From sequence record PZ445524.1: a stretch of DNA of 64,000 bases; one strand, given 5' to 3'. Source of the DNA: a phage. The number at the start of each line of letters is the position of its first letter. The stretch's first letter is position 1. The notes below the pieces were generated by a model. It did no database searches, was not told the DNA's origin, and saw only the letters and a program-made list of their open reading frames with translations. Position numbers and translations under genes: made by a program. Positions 3,927-58,543 of this stretch are shown here, in pieces.

Positions 3927-4420
3927 AAAGTTTTAATAACCTCTATAATATCGTCTTGAGAAAGACCGTTAATTAAAATATGATGTTCAGCTGGAGATTT
4001 AGAAATTTTAAAGCATGCCGCAACATCTTCTGCCATATCTGATGCACTACGATTTGGATTACTAATTCCAAGACGATGCTTTCCAGTCAAAGGATTGACG
4101 ATGATATAGCATTTGCAGCTATTGATATGAACATTAGGTTGAGTCTGATTAATGAATACTTCGCACTCATACTTAGCGAGTTGATTTTCTAAAAAGACTT
4201 TCATCTCTTCAACCGCATCAGGAAGCATATCACGGGCTTGCTCAAGACGACGATTTCGATATTCTTTAATGGTCGTTTTCCGCTTGACTTGCTTAGCTAA
4301 ATCTTTCTTAAGATCAGTGATATATCCAACTCGACGATTTCCTTTGAATACAGAAATCCCATCTGTAGTATCACCGTATGCTTCAACGACCATTTCAGTA
4401 GTAATAAGTTGTAAATCCAT
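3917..4420 (-). CDS. alc: putative Alc (host transcription unfolding/termination protein)
   Basis: 167-168 aa ORF at the position between pseT and rnlA expected from T4 gene order; assignment is positional. Confidence 0.6.
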   Translation of the reverse strand: MDLQLITTEMVVEAYGDTTDGISVFKGNRRVGYITDLKKDLAKQVKRKTTIKEYRNRRLEQARDMLPDAVEEMKVFLENQLAKYECEVFINQTQPNVHINSCKCYIIVNPLTGKHRLGISNPNRSASDMAEDVAACFKISKSPAEHHILINGLSQDDIIEVIKTLCN

Positions 4421-4484
4421 CATAAAGTCCTCATGTTATGTCAGTAAGACTACTATAACACAACACGAGGGACTTGTAAACAGC

Positions 4485-6072
<1,588 letters not shown>

Positions 6073-16196: not shown

Positions 16197-16424
16197 TTAC
16201 TGTTCAATAAATCCTGTGTAAAATTCTACATCTTCAGCATCCATACCGTCGCAGTATTCATTAACCATAAACTGTTTAAGACGATTTAAAGGACCTTCAA
16301 TAACAACTGAAACATTACAATTAGGATCATTTAGTGCGCTTATGATACTAAGTTCAGGATAACGATTACGAATAATTTCTTCAATATATTCAAAATCAAC
16401 AACATCAATATCAATTTTAGCCAT
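16197..16424 (-). CDS. hypothetical protein (75 aa), paralog of 15486..15713
   Basis: ATG with AGAGGAAA SD; own early promoter upstream. Confidence 0.55.
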
Positions 16425-16467
16425 ATTATTTTCCTCTTTAATTATCAGCAGTATTGCCGATAGTTGT

Positions 16468-16497
16468 ATATTACCACAGTATGCTTTGGTTGTAAAC
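16468..16497 (-). promoter_or_regulatory. early promoter
   Basis: - strand GTTTAC ... TAATAT upstream of ORF 16197..16424, just after the gene 32 terminator. Confidence 0.5.
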
Positions 16498-16520
16498 AGT
16501 TTTGTGAAAAATTTTTAAAA

Positions 16521-16547
16521 TAAAAAAAGGGGACCCTAGAGGTCCCC
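16521..16547 (-). terminator. rho-independent terminator after gene 32
   Basis: - strand GGGGACC-UCUAG-GGUCCCC followed by UUUUUUUAUUUU. Confidence 0.8.
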
Positions 16548-16569
16548 AATTAATTAGTAATATAATCTA

Positions 16570-17478
16570 TTAAAGGTCATTCAAAAGGTCATCCAGGTCC
16601 GTGTCATCAGCACTAGATGAACTGCTAGAGCTTGAGCTCATAAAATCATCTTCAGTTTTTGTATTGAAGTCATCAACATTGAATGCATCCAAATCATCAG
16701 CAACTTTATCAGCTTTCTTAGCGGCAGTTGCTGCGGCACCGCCCATCACAGCAGTTCCCATAACTTGACCGAATTTAGTGCTCAGTTCTTCAAACGATTT
16801 GAATTTATCTTTAGAAGTCATTTCAGAAAGGTCAACCATTTGTTCGAACAGTTCTTTCTGGAAAGATTCATCATCAATGTTTGGAATCGCAGATTGATTC
16901 AGGAATTTAGATTCATCGTAGTTACTAAATCCAGAAACCTGTTTAACTTTCAGTACAAAGTTAGCACCTTCCCACGGACAAGTTACATCAACCGGAGTTT
17001 CACCCATTTCAACATCAACTGCAATCATTGCATTGATTTTATCCCAGATTTTCTTACCGAAACGGTATTTAAATACTTTACCTTCATTTTCTGGAGCAGC
17101 TGGGTCTTTTACAACAAGAATATTAGCCCAGTAAGAAGTTTTACGTTTAACAAGACTGTACTCTTTATTGTCAGTGTTGTACAGATCATTTTTACTGATG
17201 TACTGACATACTGGGCAAGAATCGTAATCACCGTGGGTAGATGAACATGTTTCAATATACCATTTACCATTTTTCTTGAAACCGTGATTTACAAGAATTG
17301 CGAATGGTGCTTGTTCATCATTTTTAGACGGAAGAAAACGAATTACTGCTTGACCGTTACCCGCATTGTCGAGTTTCAGTTTCCACTCGCCTTTATCTTC
17401 AGAAGAAAAACCACCTTTATTTCCAGCCAGTTTAGCCATTTGCGCAGCGAGTTCAGCAGTAGATTTACGTTTAAACAT
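16570..17478 (-). CDS. 32: single-stranded DNA-binding protein gp32
   Basis: 302 aa; zinc site [14 protein letters not shown]; acidic Ser/Asp-rich C-terminus; AU-rich leader upstream. Confidence 0.95.
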
Positions 17479-17560
17479 TTTTATTTCCTTTTTAATTTAA
17501 TTAACAGTTGGTGCTATGACGATGTATGACCTCATAGCTGGTCAGTGAGATAATTATAAT
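17479..17560 (-). promoter_or_regulatory. gene 32 mRNA leader / autoregulatory translational operator
   Basis: - strand reads ...UUAAUUAAAUUAAAAAGGAAAUAAAUG; unstructured AU-rich tract adjacent to a structured region. Confidence 0.6.
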
Positions 17561-17562
17561 CT

Positions 17563-17570
17563 ATTTATAA
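17563..17570 (-). promoter_or_regulatory. late-type promoter TATAAATA upstream of gene 32
   Basis: Reverse complement TATAAATA about 85 nt upstream of the gene 32 ATG. Confidence 0.55.
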
Positions 17571-17577
17571 TAAGCAA

Positions 17578-18231
17578 TTAATACTTGCAAGATTTCACAG
17601 TTTCAATAAAAACACTTTTAGCTTTCTGTGAATCAATATTTAAAATTTTTCTATAAGCCTTTAACTTTATAGAATAATTATTCCAGACTAAATTATCAGT
17701 CTGTTCATCATGTTTATCAATTATATTTAAAAACGAATCAAGCAAGATAAACGTCTCAAACGAAATTATGTTCGATTGCAGAAGTTTAAAAATATAACTT
17801 GATTGAACTTTTGGATTATACTCAAAAATTTCTTTAAAAGCAGAAACTTCAACTTTTTTACTAAAATAATAAATGTTGCGAATATCTTCTTCAAACTTAA
17901 ATTTAATTTGCTTTAAGCGTCCGATATATTCACGATAAAACACAAGTGCATCAGCGTCAGAGATGTCACCAATCCAAGCATCTTGGTTAGCAACCAAATT
18001 GCTTATAAAGATTAAAGCAAGTTCCTTTAATTTATATTTTTCTGATAACTTCTGGAAAAAATACTTATCCCTTCGCTTTTGATAAGCGGCATCAGACACC
18101 CGCATGCACCAATTATACTTAATAACATCATACTTTCCATTCATATGCTGTTTTATCATTAAGTATAATTTATAAACTGATTTACCATCAATGTATCTTT
18201 CACCACCAGCAGGCATGCGGAGTTTAATCAT
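17578..18231 (-). CDS. 59: helicase loader gp59
   Basis: 217 aa basic protein directly upstream of gene 32. Confidence 0.85.
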   Translation of the reverse strand: MIKLRMPAGGERYIDGKSVYKLYLMIKQHMNGKYDVIKYNWCMRVSDAAYQKRRDKYFFQKLSEKYKLKELALIFISNLVANQDAWIGDISDADALVFYREYIGRLKQIKFKFEEDIRNIYYFSKKVEVSAFKEIFEYNPKVQSSYIFKLLQSNIISFETFILLDSFLNIIDKHDEQTDNLVWNNYSIKLKAYRKILNIDSQKAKSVFIETVKSCKY

Positions 18232-18566
18232 AGTAGAAAATCTAATGTATTAGTTTTTTCACAGCGAACAACAGAAGGACGTAAAAGATTTTCGTCAATA
18301 GCTTCTGACTGAATTTTTTCAATTATACCCGAAGGAATAAATTTAGCAAATTGAGTTTCAGGAATAGAGTTTTCTTCCAAGAATGCTGTCGTAGCTTCAA
18401 GATAACTCATTCCAAACTCTTCTACCATTTTTTCAATAATAAATCCATTTTCTTGACGATCAAGAAGCTTTGCTATTTCATCCTTTTCTTTCTTGATTGA
18501 GAGTTCTTTTTCTGAAAGACCGGTCTCATCGACCGGACGAATATCATTTAGAGAAAACTGTGTCAT
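18228..18566 (-). CDS. 33: late transcription co-activator gp33
   Basis: 112 aa from ATG 18564-18566; acidic; position 59-33-dsbA. Confidence 0.75.
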   Translation of the reverse strand: MTQFSLNDIRPVDETGLSEKELSIKKEKDEIAKLLDRQENGFIIEKMVEEFGMSYLEATTAFLEENSIPETQFAKFIPSGIIEKIQSEAIDENLLRPSVVRCEKTNTLDFLL

Positions 18567-18813
18567 AAAGTTCAACTACCTCTTCAGTTTCAGCTTCAAA
18601 CACATCACGGTTATCTTTATGATACAAAGCTAATAGACGATTAAACATCTTACCATCAACACCAAGTTCATCTTTAGCACGAATTCGAATATCTTTAATC
18701 AGTTCATTATAACCGGAAATTTTCAGTTTATGATCAGATGCTTCTTTAATAAATTTAGCCAAGTCTTCGCCATGGATAGCTTCATCAAATTCAACCATTT
18801 CTTTTTTAGCCAT
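18544..18813 (-). CDS. dsbA: dsDNA-binding protein DsbA
   Basis: 89 aa; GAGGTG SD; position between 33 and rnh. Confidence 0.7.
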   Translation of the reverse strand: MAKKEMVEFDEAIHGEDLAKFIKEASDHKLKISGYNELIKDIRIRAKDELGVDGKMFNRLLALYHKDNRDVFEAETEEVVELYDTVFSK

Positions 18814-18821
18814 TATTCACC

Positions 18822-19739
18822 TCAAAATTCATTAATGCTATTAGTTAATTTAGAAAGACCCGCTTTTACAAAATATGAATAAATTTTGCCACGCGGTGGT
18901 AATTTATATGAATTATAGTAATTCACAATGTTTGAAGCAATATTATCAGGAATATAATCAAAATCAATTAGAACTAAATTTTCTTTATATCGATTATATT
19001 CAGATTCAGTGAGAAGCACCTTAGCTTGCTCACGGTCATTAGCAATAGCTTCAACGATTGAAGTTTTCATTGAAGGAGTTCGTTCACCTTCAACTCTGGT
19101 AAACCAAAAGTCAGATCGTACTTTAACTGAAGCAACGTTATCCTTTTTGTCGCCTTTAAGGATTTTAGTCATACAGTCAATTTCAGCAGAACCGCTTTTA
19201 ATTTTAACCCATTTCTTGTGCATCGGTGACCATTGCTTAACATTTGGGTATTTGTGAAGTTGAGTAAAGTCACCATCCGACGAAATGATTAAAATCTTAT
19301 GTCCTTCTAAAGAGAACTTTTTAACAAGAACAGCAATGTGGTCATCTGCTTCATACTTATCAATATCCATAACAATGTATGGCATATAAGCTTTCAATTC
19401 ATCTATAACTTTATGGCTGGATTCAAAATAACCTTCCCAGTCCCAAGTAGATTCTTCTCGTGCTTTTCCACGGTTTTTCTTGTAATAATACGCGAAATCA
19501 CGACGCCAGTATCCAGATTTCGCGTTATCAATACACAGTACAATTTTAGTGTATCCAAGCGTTTTTGCTTTTTTGACATTAAACTTAATTGAGTTCAATA
19601 TCAAATGACGAACCATTGATAAATTAATTTTTTCTTTATCTGGGAAGTTTACCAGAGCAGTTGAAAGCGCAATTTGACTAAAGTCAATTAAGCAGATTCC
19701 TTCTTTGTAATCTTCATCCAACATCATTTCTAAATCCAT
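18822..19739 (-). CDS. rnh: RNase H (5'-3' exonuclease / flap endonuclease)
   Basis: 305 aa from ATG 19737-19739 (MDLEMM); FEN-family acidic residues. Confidence 0.9.
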   Translation of the reverse strand: MDLEMMLDEDYKEGICLIDFSQIALSTALVNFPDKEKINLSMVRHLILNSIKFNVKKAKTLGYTKIVLCIDNAKSGYWRRDFAYYYKKNRGKAREESTWDWEGYFESSHKVIDELKAYMPYIVMDIDKYEADDHIAVLVKKFSLEGHKILIISSDGDFTQLHKYPNVKQWSPMHKKWVKIKSGSAEIDCMTKILKGDKKDNVASVKVRSDFWFTRVEGERTPSMKTSIVEAIANDREQAKVLLTESEYNRYKENLVLIDFDYIPDNIASNIVNYYNSYKLPPRGKIYSYFVKAGLSKLTNSINEF

Positions 19740-30283: not shown

Positions 30284-30313
30284 TTTGAATAAATATCCTT
30301 AAAAGGAGGGTCT

Positions 30314-30970
30314 ATGGCAGCACCTAGAATATCATTTTCGCCCTCTGATATTCTGTTTGGTGTTCTAGATCGCTTGTTCAAAGATAACGCTACCGGGAAG
30401 GTTCTTGCTTCCCGGGTAGCTGTCGTAATTCTTTTATTTATGATGGCGATTGTTTGGTATAGGGGAGATAGTTTCTTTGAGTACTATAAGCAATCAAAGT
30501 ATGAAACATACCGTGAAATTATTGAAAAGGAAAGAACTGCACGCTTTGAATCTGTCGCCCTGGAACAACTCCAGATAGTTCATATATCATCTGAGGCAGA
30601 CTTTAGTGCGGTGTATTCTTTCCGCCCTAAAAACTTAAACTATTTTGTTGATATTATAGCATACGAAGGAAGATTACCTTCAACAATAACTGAAAAATCA
30701 CTTGGAGGATATCCTGTTGATAAAACTATGGATGAATATACAGTTCATTTAAATGGACGTCATTATTATTCCAACTCAAAATTTGCTTTTTTACCAACTA
30801 AAAAGCCTACTCCCGAAATAAACTACATGTACAGTTGTCCATATTTTAATTTGGATAATATCTATGCTGGAACGATAACCATGTACTGGTATAGAAATGA
30901 TCATATAAGTAATGACCGCCTTGAATCAATATGTGCTCAGGCGGCCAGAATATTAGGAAGGGCTAAATAA
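30314..30970 (+). CDS. t: holin T
   Basis: 218 aa; single N-terminal TM segment and large periplasmic domain; SD AAGGAGGG. Confidence 0.9.
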   Translation: MAAPRISFSPSDILFGVLDRLFKDNATGKVLASRVAVVILLFMMAIVWYRGDSFFEYYKQSKYETYREIIEKERTARFESVALEQLQIVHISSEADFSAVYSFRPKNLNYFVDIIAYEGRLPSTITEKSLGGYPVDKTMDEYTVHLNGRHYYSNSKFAFLPTKKPTPEINYMYSCPYFNLDNIYAGTITMYWYRNDHISNDRLESICAQAARILGRAK

Positions 30971-55898: not shown

Positions 55899-55906
55899 TA
55901 TTTATA
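55899..55906 (-). promoter_or_regulatory. late promoter TATAAATA for soc
   Basis: Reverse complement TATAAATA about 30 nt upstream of the soc ATG. Confidence 0.7.
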
Positions 55907-56738
55907 AACCATTTTCAAATCTCTTTATCATGTTTATATAATTTTCGTCAGGATAACCTAGGCTAACTGCTAGCTTTCTAAAATTGACATATTTAGGTTT
56001 GTTGTTATTAATCCATAATTCTCTAAGCTCTTTTTCATAATTCCATTTAAGTTGATTTCTGCGTGCAATTTTGCTTAAAGTTTTTCCTTTAGCTTTTAAA
56101 GCTTTTTCAGATGACTGTTTTAATTTTTGAATATTTAAAACTTCTTCTATAGATAAATTATTTTCCTTTGAATATCTTATGCAAAAATCTTTTACTATGG
56201 CTATTAGGCAATTTTTGTGAGTACCTAAAATTTCTGGATTATTTTCTTCAACTAAAATTCCCCAATACCTTCGATAGCGAGGCATATCCCTTGAAATCCA
56301 GTCATTATACCAAAAATCAAAGTTGGAATACATGAAAGATTTTCTTTTACGAAGAGTATCTTGGTTTATCCATTGCTCACGTTTATCAGCCCATAACTTA
56401 ATAGTAAAGTCTTTCTCTAAGTCAGAAAGCTTCTTAAATTGTGAGCTATTTACTGAGGTCATTCTCTGGAATGCATTCAGCAATCCAAATCTTCCAGTTG
56501 AACATAAGAGATAGTGAACATATATGTGTTGATATATTGGGAGATATACTCTATTCCAAGGATATATTTTAAAATCACTATACTCAGGAAATGCACATTT
56601 AGGAAGTATATGATGGGCTTCTGTTTTAGATTTAATGTGAGTGTTTAACTTATACTTATCTATAATTTTTAAATACTCATCTAAAAGTTCCCATTGCGGG
56701 AACTTTTCTTTAAGAGCAGATTTGAAATTAATATCCAT
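55902..56738 (-). CDS. HNH homing-endonuclease-like protein (Mob-type) adjacent to gene 56
   Basis: 278 aa from ATG 56736-56738; motif EAHHILPKCAFPEY; basic C-terminal region; start overlaps gene 56 3' end by 11 nt. Confidence 0.65.
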   Translation of the reverse strand: MDINFKSALKEKFPQWELLDEYLKIIDKYKLNTHIKSKTEAHHILPKCAFPEYSDFKIYPWNRVYLPIYQHIYVHYLLCSTGRFGLLNAFQRMTSVNSSQFKKLSDLEKDFTIKLWADKREQWINQDTLRKRKSFMYSNFDFWYNDWISRDMPRYRRYWGILVEENNPEILGTHKNCLIAIVKDFCIRYSKENNLSIEEVLNIQKLKQSSEKALKAKGKTLSKIARRNQLKWNYEKELRELWINNNKPKYVNFRKLAVSLGYPDENYINMIKRFENGL

Positions 56739-57246
56739 TATCTTGACGTTCAAAATTATGTTTGTTCTTCAAATAATAAAGTTTAAAGATTTCTTCAGCC
56801 GACATTCCAAGAGCAATAAATTTATTCATGAAAAAGTGAAATTGGTCAATCAGTTCAAATTTAATTTCAAGCTGATCTTCGGGAGATAAATCTTGAATTT
56901 TCTTGGATTGCATTTCAGAATAACGTTTCTTCCAAGGTTTCCATACAGCAGAAGCTTCTTTTTCACCATTACTCATACCACCAAGAGAAGTATATAGCTC
57001 GCGAGTTTCGTCTGCGATATAATCGTCTTGGTTTCGCAGCCAAGCAAGAACTTCTCCTGCAGTTTCAAGTGAATCGGGATGACGATTTGTTTCTGGTTTA
57101 TCATTAGCCAAACGAATCTGTAAATGCCGCTGCATATCAAGCATAACCTGCAATGGGTCTTTTTCATCACCGAGAATATCCCAGTATTCATTTTGAGCTT
57201 TATCAACACCTTCGATCAAATGAGCACATTCATTAAAGTGAGCCAT
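56728..57246 (-). CDS. 56: dCTPase/dUTPase gp56 (MazG-like)
   Basis: 172 aa from MAHFNECAHL; middle-promoter-like element upstream. Confidence 0.85.
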   Translation of the reverse strand: MAHFNECAHLIEGVDKAQNEYWDILGDEKDPLQVMLDMQRHLQIRLANDKPETNRHPDSLETAGEVLAWLRNQDDYIADETRELYTSLGGMSNGEKEASAVWKPWKKRYSEMQSKKIQDLSPEDQLEIKFELIDQFHFFMNKFIALGMSAEEIFKLYYLKNKHNFERQDNGY

Positions 57247-57280
57247 TATTTTTCCTTTCAATTCATGGGTTAGTAGATTA

Positions 57281-57305
57281 ATTATACAATAAATATATAA
57301 AGCAA
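57281..57305 (-). promoter_or_regulatory. MotA-dependent middle promoter for gene 56
   Basis: - strand TTGCTTTA (MotA box) then 11 nt then TATAAT, about 40 nt upstream of the gene 56 ATG. Confidence 0.6.
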
Positions 57306-57317
57306 TAAGGAGGACAT

Positions 57318-57518
57318 ATGGTACAAAAATTAATGGCACTTGTTGATGCCATAAAAGGTAATAAGAAACGTATAGCTTTTACTATTTCTGCTATGGTAGG
57401 AATTTTACTCTGGAACTTTATTTTATCACCTGTTGCAATTGCACATGGTATTAATATTCCAGTAGTTACTCTTGATACATTCGTAGATTTAGCATTTGCT
57501 TTAGTTGGGTTAATTTAA
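57318..57518 (+). CDS. small putative membrane protein (66 aa) on the + strand between genes 56 and 61
   Basis: SD AAGGAGGA then ATG at 57318; two hydrophobic segments; stop overlaps gene 61 stop convergently (TTAA). Confidence 0.45.
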   Translation: MVQKLMALVDAIKGNKKRIAFTISAMVGILLWNFILSPVAIAHGINIPVVTLDTFVDLAFALVGLI

Positions 57519-58543
57519 ATCTTAGCATATTTAGATAGCCGCATTTTAGCCATCAACCCCTGGGCAATATTATTTTTCATATATTCCATAATTTGTTCAG
57601 GGGTTGCACCTTCCTTTCTAATCATATCATTAACATCTTTTGATTTCCAGGGAGATTTATCCCAAAACATAACCCTTTCTCCTGCATCAACTAATTTAGT
57701 CATCCGTTTAATAGTGTCAGGGTGACGAGGTTCATTATCTAAAACCCACACTCGTCTATCTTTAAATGGAACAACTTCTAGGTCTAATTGACCACCCGTA
57801 ATAGCTATACCATTTTCAATAAAAAGTGAATCTATAGGTCCTTCTAGAACATATACATCACCATCTTTAACTCGTTCGACTCCATAGATTTTTGTTGCTT
57901 CAGGATAAGCTTTGATGGTGATATATTTTTGAGGAGCATCTTTCTTTAATGCACGTCCTTGAAAAGACTCAGCTTTTCCATTAGCATTATAAATTGGAAT
58001 AACAAGACGAGGCTCAGAAATTTCCTTTTTATATGTTCCCGGTGCTATGCTATTAACCAATTTAGGCCATTCGGTTGTAAACCAAAGATATTTCCATTTA
58101 TCCTTTGGAATACAACGAGCTTTTACATATTTTATAATTGGATGGTCTTCCGCCAGTTTATCTAATCTAACACATGACGGAAGAGATTTAATTATTTTCT
58201 TCTCAGGTTGTTTAGGAAGTTCTTTAGGTTTTTCTACTGGACGACTTTTACCTTTTTCTTTTCTTATTTCAAAGATATACTCACGATATAAATCAGGTTC
58301 AAACTCCTTTAAATATATTCCGATTGGTGCATGATAGTTACAGTTATAACAATGAATATTTCCTTCATTATTATCACCATAATACCATCCACGGGCTTTA
58401 TTTTGGTCGGTTTTTGAATCTCCACACACTGGGCATCTAAACCGTAATTTAAAAGTTGAACTATTATTTACTTGTGTGAATTTAGGTAAATGAGCTAATG
58501 CACGGTATGCAAACTCATTATCAATCCAAGGTATTGATGACAT
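57515..58543 (-). CDS. 61: DNA primase gp61
   Basis: 342 aa; zinc ribbon CPVCGDS...CYNCNYH plus TOPRIM-like core. Confidence 0.92.
   Translation of the reverse strand: MSSIPWIDNEFAYRALAHLPKFTQVNNSSTFKLRFRCPVCGDSKTDQNKARGWYYGDNNEGNIHCYNCNYHAPIGIYLKEFEPDLYREYIFEIRKEKGKSRPVEKPKELPKQPEKKIIKSLPSCVRLDKLAEDHPIIKYVKARCIPKDKWKYLWFTTEWPKLVNSIAPGTYKKEISEPRLVIPIYNANGKAESFQGRALKKDAPQKYITIKAYPEATKIYGVERVKDGDVYVLEGPIDSLFIENGIAITGGQLDLEVVPFKDRRVWVLDNEPRHPDTIKRMTKLVDAGERVMFWDKSPWKSKDVNDMIRKEGATPEQIMEYMKNNIAQGLMAKMRLSKYAKI

Follow-up and report, generated by a model that had tools for sequence, protein, structure and literature searches.

A conserved small membrane-protein gene beside the primase gene of T4-type phages, with a late-promoter-like box and remote similarity to 3TM holins

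The DNA analysed here, referred to below as the window, is a 64,000-nucleotide segment of a T4-type (Tequatrovirus) phage genome (PZ445524.1), with 99.8% identity over the region of interest to phages such as vB_EcoM_R5505. At 57318..57518 on the plus strand lies an open reading frame (ORF) that begins with ATG, ends with TAA and encodes a protein of 66 aa (translation, MVQKLMALVDAIKGNKKRIAFTISAMVGILLWNFILSPVAIAHGINIPVVTLDTFVDLAFALVGLI). It converges on gene 61 (primase; 57515..58543, minus strand), and the two genes share the tetranucleotide TTAA at 57515..57518, in which the ORF stop occupies 57516-57518 and that of gene 61 occupies 57517..57515 on the minus strand. A Shine-Dalgarno (SD) sequence, AAGGAGG, is found at 57307..57313 (plus strand) and is separated from the ATG by 4 nt (ACAT). 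On the other side lies gene 56 (dCTPase), divergent and on the minus strand, whose start at 57246 leaves 71 bp between the two start codons. When the minus-strand block 32265-63967 was scanned for plus-strand ATG ORFs of at least 40 aa with a strong SD, located 4-16 nt upstream of the ATG, 57318..57518 was the single ORF found. An initial annotation of this DNA had proposed the frame, the near-perfect SD with its 4-nt spacer, the overlap with the gene 61 stop on the opposite strand and the status of the ORF as the only well-signalled plus-strand frame of the early region; the first three match the sequence exactly, and the last was confirmed for the block scanned.

The ORF was matched by tblastn in 698 phage records, 687 of them at a coverage of at least 80%. 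Identity was at least 80% in about 500 records (503, compared to 502 that carry gp61 at an identity of at least 95%) and approximately 50% in 195. The same site beside the primase gene, with convergent overlap, was seen in Tequatrovirus, in F2-type phages, in Gaprivervirus VR26, in Karamvirus CkP1 and in a Klebsiella-phage-like genome (L015); the stop overlap measures 4 nt in T4, F2, VR26 (second ORF), CkP1 and L015. Position and orientation are also kept in a metagenomic T4-like contig (L041), where another gene and a terminator stand between the ORF and the primase gene; the extra ORF encodes 124 aa and lies at 4204-4578 on the minus strand of that contig. Profile searches added members in Klebsiella, Salmonella (S16 group), Citrobacter and Yersinia phages. 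As an exhaustive HMMER profile search of 1.84 billion representatives yielded only 20 clusters at 50% identity, the family is small.

Two subfamilies can be distinguished, a T4 type with A-H-G and a VR26_032 type with T-Q-G. The family alignment shows no variation at W32, N33, P38 and G44 and very little at P48 and G64. Even where identity falls to 20-50%, between genera and in phages of unrelated types, members retain the frame, the SD, the motifs and a length of about 65 aa. Nei-Gojobori estimates of dN/dS fell between 0.07 and 0.39 in 13 of 14 informative pairs, with synonymous sites saturated between lineages; a value of 0.97 for the window and CkP1 was disregarded, as it reflects saturation at 30% identity. 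The initial annotation had let its case hinge on conservation of the frame in related phages, and the frame is clearly conserved; judged by these comparisons, the ORF is a real and strongly conserved protein gene of T4-type phages, under purifying selection. As a separate observation, VR26 (L004; Gaprivervirus) carries tandem paralogues at 1995-2192 and 2201-2401, the first of subfamily A and the second of subfamily B; a late box precedes only the first, and it is the second that overlaps the primase stop. At that site, one subfamily only is present in most other lineages.

The same gene is present in T4 itself. The reference genome has the order gene 56 (16270-16785), dam (16846-17625), a 309-bp gap described as empty, and gene 61 (17935-18963); the dam-61 gap of NC_000866 holds the intact ORF at 17738..17938, with the same overlap with gene 61. 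The earlier statement that the ORF occupies the interval of T4 dam is thus incorrect, as the T4 genome carries both. The ORF is absent from the T4 annotation in NC_000866 and AF158101, and the exact T4 protein had no NCBI accession in the protein collection searched, where it was present from raw assemblies only. Hundreds of other T-even genomes do annotate it, as 'hypothetical protein' (RB32ORF030w, RB55_p033, VR26_031/032). The window protein belongs, over its full length, to phrog_2024 (E=4.1e-31, 107.6 bits; its residues 2-66 align with profile positions 1-65 of 65), a family of unknown function that was also matched by all 32 diverse relatives tested; Pfam gave no match even at E<=10. The gene family is therefore already catalogued, with neither a function nor a T4 reference call, and nothing on the ORF was found in the searchable literature, including that on T4 ribosome profiling, small proteins and antisense or late transcription. 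A CDS at 17738..17938 (plus strand) should be added to the T4 reference annotation.

The T4 late promoter is TATAAATA at positions -13 to -6; of 50 such promoters in T4, 9 have A(-13), the commonest natural variant, and there are other single departures from the consensus (PMC2988020). Relatives of T4 show little conservation of T(-13) (PMC1524935). Reading the sequence upstream of the ORF against this consensus, we found a late-promoter-like box with A at -13, AATAAATA, at 57288..57295 on the plus strand, which predicts a late start near 57301 and a leader of about 17 nt. Across lineages, NATAAATA is present 23-40 nt upstream of the ATG in 14 of 16 homologous units. Its form in the window is AATAAATA, shared with F2 and L015; T4 and L041 have GATAAATA and VR26 has CATAAATA, and the forms of T4 and VR26 are rarer -13 variants. 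The two units without the motif are CkP1, where ATTAAATA is found, and the downstream gene of the VR26 tandem. Fifteen of the 16 units have AGGAGG or AAGGAG at an unchanged offset, the remaining one being the second VR26 ORF, with GGTGG.

Early and middle transcripts of T4 all come from the other strand, and late transcripts alone use both (PMC2988020). The ORF is probably expressed late, the only mode supported by the sequence, since the late box is conserved, no sigma-70-like plus-strand promoter was found upstream of the ORF, and its strand is the one used by late transcripts only. The window has 21 copies of ATAAATA, about half the 40 +/- 5.8 expected from shuffled sequences (100 of 100 shuffles had 21 or more), a depletion that would fit selection against chance late-promoter boxes; copies stand just upstream of soc (55905..55899, minus strand) and of t (30289-30295, plus strand).

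Read against the consensus, the 57281-57304 region also holds a putative MotA-dependent middle promoter for gene 56 on the minus strand. It is near-consensus, with tatTGCTTTA at 57307..57298, an 11-nt spacer and TATAAT at 57286..57281, and the plus-strand late box at 57288-57295 falls inside its spacer, so that the two form a compact back-to-back middle/late promoter pair. A second minus-strand element lies at 57333-57352, in codons 6-12 of the ORF and about 165 nt beyond the gene 61 stop: a terminator-like hairpin of 7 bp (-8.2 kcal/mol) followed by TAATTTTTGT, annotated as a terminator by TransTermHP in phage SA21RB. These two elements, and the fact that the ORF was never annotated in the T4 reference, could be taken to mean that it is no gene, merely a chance frame in an AT-rich spacer kept for minus-strand signals (the gene 56/dam promoter and the gene 61 terminator). 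The codon 6-12 hairpin, however, is not conserved outside Tequatrovirus, being absent in F2, VR26, CkP1 and L015, and was rejected as a cause of the conservation. With frame, length, SD and motifs kept in distant relatives, dN/dS below 0.4 and a PHROG family in existence, the comparative data effectively refute this explanation, and we assign it a negligible likelihood.

Downstream of the ORF, 36-90 nt past its stop and within the 3' end of gene 61, a strong interrupted hairpin of 19 bp is found at 57554..57606 (plus strand; fold z-score, -3.9), followed by a C/U-rich stretch. Comparable hairpins exist in T4, F2, VR26 and CkP1, those of F2, VR26 and CkP1 differing from it in sequence, and a weak one in L015. 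This hairpin may end a short late transcript, or it may stabilise the 3' end of the gene 61 mRNA. The L041 contig has a canonical stem and U6 terminator directly after the ORF stop, an arrangement that, together with the downstream hairpins, fits a short self-contained late transcription unit. The L041 terminator is perfect and bidirectional-looking (CTCTAGAGC-TTCG-GCTCTAGAG, then T6).

The position of the strong hairpin inside the gene 61 3' end and the conservation of the 4-nt convergent overlap raise the possibility of a role at the RNA level, in which a late plus-strand transcript is antisense to, or interferes with, the 3' end of gene 61 (41-61 operon) and the ORF is secondary. At some sites T4 is known to use both strands for transcription, though not at the same time (PMC2988020), and a dRNA-seq preprint lists 22 antisense sites among 150 phage start sites for T4 (bioRxiv 10.1101/2024.04.04.588121). 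Nevertheless, we consider such a role improbable as the main function and a chance ORF effectively excluded: it is the protein that is under selection (dN/dS lies well below 1, and motifs in the amino-acid sequence survive synonymous saturation), and homologues exist in prophages and siphophages with no primase gene nearby. The SD and the ATG are also conserved, and in L041 the terminator follows the ORF immediately and another gene comes before the primase.

The presence of two hydrophobic segments, as first noted for this ORF, was borne out by Kyte-Doolittle hydropathy (15-residue window), which placed them at residues 19-44 and 49-66. The first (57372..57449, plus strand) is a clear transmembrane helix by hydropathy and carries W32-N33 and P38; all five K/R residues of the protein (4, 13, 16, 17 and 18) precede it. 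A conserved loop (residues 45-48; 57450..57461, plus strand) follows the invariant G44 and contains the nearly invariant P48. The second segment (57462..57515, plus strand), of about 15-18 residues, contains D53 and D57 and is less hydrophobic in subfamily B and CkP1; the protein ends in ...ALVGLI, with no charge beyond D57 and no charged C-terminal tail. An AlphaFold model built with the family alignment (pLDDT 80) shows a helix at 2-12, a helix at 16-42 (pLDDT 84-88), a loop at 43-51 and a helix at 52-63, in a helix-loop-helix arrangement. Conservation, purifying selection, hydropathy and the model together support a small membrane protein with a basic N-terminus, one transmembrane helix and a G-x-x-x-P loop. 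By the positive-inside rule, the N-terminus would be cytoplasmic and helix 16-42 membrane-spanning. The last helix is short, has an acidic face and, in subfamily B and CkP1, is poorly hydrophobic; it is therefore predicted to be either a short return segment or an interfacial helix. A structure search of the model against viral models returned orthologues only and no informative fold match; one of these orthologues had been named 'Holin' by its submitter, without evidence.

Word-indexed protein searches at first returned Tevenvirinae relatives only, and tblastn with distant members against the phage collection found T4-like loci only, apart from one match at E=8, which led to the 3TM holin of phage DSL-LC05. 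Distant family members match the holin profile phrog_3427 (P0116, E=5e-4; P0119, E=2e-3) and the Pfam family 'Holin of 3TMs', PF11351 (E=0.03 and 0.1), always through the C-terminal part of the profile. A bridging member of 96 aa, P0134, matches phrog_2024 with E=6e-11 and PF11351 with E=0.0027 (profile positions 39-116 of 123). The best family members remain below the PF11351 gathering cut-off of 24.8 bits (P0134, 18.6 bits; P0116, 15.3; P0115, 13.6). Two of three secondary PHROG matches with a function label read 'holin'.

The family was also compared by hhalign with a reference set of nine 3TM holins assembled from phage genomes, giving a probability of 94% (E=1.2e-7, score 44.5; family columns 32-83 against holin columns 71-128). 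Distant members alone gave 93% and T4-like sequences alone 80%. As controls, 400 composition-preserving column shuffles scored about 10.5 on average (sd 2.4, maximum 21.9), and reversed alignments 7.5-11. Plain HMMER profile-to-sequence tests of the link were individually not significant (E 0.056-0.87): with the family HMM, holins were the top five of 566 ORFs from the holin loci (individual E 0.056-0.7), and in the reverse search the window ORF came third of 916 (E=0.87). The link rests on the profile-profile scores, the shuffled controls and the bridging member P0134. On this basis the family is probably homologous to the C-terminal membrane half of 3TM holins, at a level below curated thresholds, and the T4-type protein would correspond to the last two hydrophobic segments only of such a holin.

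The part of the 3TM holins (PF11351, phrog_3427, TCDB 1.E.54) that aligns with the family consists of the C-terminal pair of hydrophobic segments with their connecting loop. Common to both are an aromatic-x-F/Y-hydrophobic-hydrophobic-x-P pattern in segment 1, a G...P.P loop, a D/E residue and a hydrophobic helix ending in G; P0134 shares with the 3TM holins a W-R-x-x-x-G-W motif before segment 1. The differences are equally clear. The window protein has 66 aa, whereas 3TM holins have 130-150; it has 18 residues before segment 1 and lacks the N-terminal amphipathic helix and charged linker (about 70 aa) of the holins, their VNK.EA...FVAGWRP motif and their basic tail RSFEK.KG (R.FE..KG). Only the outlier P0134 keeps part of the N-terminal region. 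Six of the nine reference holin loci have an adjoining gene annotated as a peptidase, a lysozyme-type hydrolase, a peptidoglycan-binding protein or an endolysin, and the other three have hypothetical or structural neighbours only; in T4-like phages, unlike in those six, no endolysin adjoins the ORF. The RcGTA holin rcc00556 is a member of the 'Holin of 3TMs' family. It has been called only a putative holin (PMC3423380).

The canonical T holin gene is present in the window at 30314..30970 (218 aa; PF11031, E=7e-117). It shares with the ORF its plus-strand orientation and an ATAAATA box a short way upstream, but it is a separate gene whose product is unrelated to the ORF protein in sequence and size; a Pfam search with the ORF (E<=10) did not match PF11031. 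Mutants of T4 in t and e fail to lyse, and the ORF protein therefore cannot be an autonomous or sufficient holin. Class II holins and pinholins, such as S68 of phage 21, are small (65-95 aa), with two hydrophobic segments, an N-in/C-in topology, a charged C-terminal domain and a dual start. The ORF protein resembles them in its small size, two hydrophobic segments, basic N-terminus and presumed late expression; it differs from the S68 type in that no sequence similarity was detected and that it has neither a charged hydrophilic C-terminal tail nor a lysis cassette. A possible dual-start motif (M1...K4..M6) was rejected, as it occurs in Tequatrovirus copies only, is absent in F2, VR26, CkP1 and subfamily B, and has no SD for M6.

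Superinfection exclusion offers another comparison. T4 Imm and Sp are small envelope superinfection-exclusion proteins, encoded by early genes on the other strand. As small envelope proteins encoded by a phage they resemble the ORF product, and the sp gene of T4 is found in the same region, about 2 kb from the ORF, but the strand and promoter of the ORF point to late expression. The initial annotation had offered a superinfection-exclusion, holin-like or toxin-like peptide as alternatives. The holin-like option gained ground from the remote, order-specific similarity to the membrane half of 3TM holins; exclusion became less likely, since early and middle T4 transcripts come from the other strand (PMC2988020) and the sole promoter signal found is a late box; and no result supported a toxin-like peptide.

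No lysis gene was found next to the ORF in the T4-like loci examined, where its neighbours are the dCTPase gene 56 and the primase gene 61. Outside T4-like phages, distant homologues in prophage and siphophage contigs (L022-L029) are accompanied by a conserved set of genes, located either where the tail module ends or at a prophage edge. The set comprises a membrane-anchored coiled-coil protein of 83-98 aa (with a weak Rz-like spanin match), endonuclease VII or SegE, soluble proteins of about 180 and 106 aa (a minor tail protein is weakly matched by one) and often a T4-type lysozyme. In two of these contigs (L025 and L026) the homologue is the first gene of an operon whose last gene encodes a T4-type lysozyme. 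An E. coli prophage has a lysozyme gene 1.5 kb from the homologue; in another prophage remnant it is preceded by the portal gene. The context in L022-L029 is suggestive of lysis, but a clean holin-endolysin cassette is not seen there; partial resemblance to a lysis cassette is confined to L025/L026 and L022-24.

The explanation best supported by these observations, to which we assign a probability of roughly 45%, is that the ORF encodes a late, holin-core-derived inner-membrane protein with an accessory effect on membrane permeability or lysis timing. The gp55-type late box AATAAATA (57288-57295) would drive a short mRNA with a strong ribosome-binding site, from which the 66-aa inner-membrane protein would be made. 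Its basic N-terminal helix would stay in the cytoplasm, its transmembrane helix (about 19-42) would carry the conserved Trp-Asn, in mid-membrane, and a Pro, the Gly...Pro loop would be periplasmic, and the second hydrophobic helix (about 50-66), with its acidic face, would dip back into the membrane or lie on it. The family would have derived from the two C-terminal segments of 3TM holins by loss of the N-terminal approximately 70 residues and of the basic tail; from such a derivation, a holin-core-like activity would be the most likely one. Late in infection the protein may oligomerise in the inner membrane and alter its permeability or energisation, and in this way influence when or how lysis is carried out, acting as a T holin accessory and not as an autonomous holin.

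Nearly as likely as this accessory lysis role is a non-lytic one, in which the ORF product is a real late membrane protein and its likeness to holins reflects no more than a shared ancestral two-segment hairpin. Candidate functions are protection or remodelling of the inner membrane late in infection, late exclusion of or resistance to superinfecting phage, the countering of a membrane-associated host defence, or an assembly anchor. The phage already has a complete canonical T holin, and in no T4-like genome examined does a lysis gene lie near the ORF; its siphophage and prophage relatives travel with endonuclease VII or SegE and the proteins of about 180 and 106 aa in place of a clean holin-endolysin pair, and the ORF keeps a fixed position beside the primase and spackle-region genes. 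On the other hand, holin families were the only functional labels to come out of any sequence comparison, a lysozyme gene shares the operon in L025 and L026 or lies within 1.5 kb in the E. coli prophage, and exclusion of the classical kind needs early expression, against which the strand and promoter of the ORF argue.

A bolder proposal, which we regard as speculative and rather unlikely, is that T4 and its enterobacterial relatives possess a second holin-derived gene, so far unrecognised: a two-segment 'mini-holin' made from the 3TM core, with its own late promoter, that times, triggers or inhibits lysis. Were this true, the mini-holin might depolarise the membrane to fire the T holin, or act in the collapse of lysis inhibition. 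The components of T4 lysis and lysis inhibition (T, E, RI, RIII and the spanins) are regarded as a nearly closed list, and a universally retained late holin-core-like gene that is unannotated in NC_000866 would be a candidate part that omics studies and screens based on NC_000866 cannot include. It would also be an example of a holin family reduced to two membrane segments, the core of the protein. Neither the late-promoter architecture nor the link to the 3TM-holin membrane core has been described in the literature that could be searched.

The interval between gene 56 and the ORF varies among these phages. In the window (57247-57317) it lacks dam, which T4 has at that place, and 323 of 514 related records align contiguously to a 401-bp query spanning gene 56, the ORF and gene 61, which suggests that the dam-less arrangement is common among them. 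Elsewhere the interval holds an HNH endonuclease gene (L015) or a 102-aa ORF (CkP1), and by its behaviour it appears to be an insertion hot spot. At the other end of gene 56, a 283-aa ORF (55902-56753, minus strand) overlaps the gene 56 3' end, where T4 has the GIY-YIG endonuclease SegF. This ORF has an HNH-like H-H-I-L-P-K-C motif and no Pfam match at E<=0.001; it probably encodes a different free-standing homing endonuclease and not SegF.
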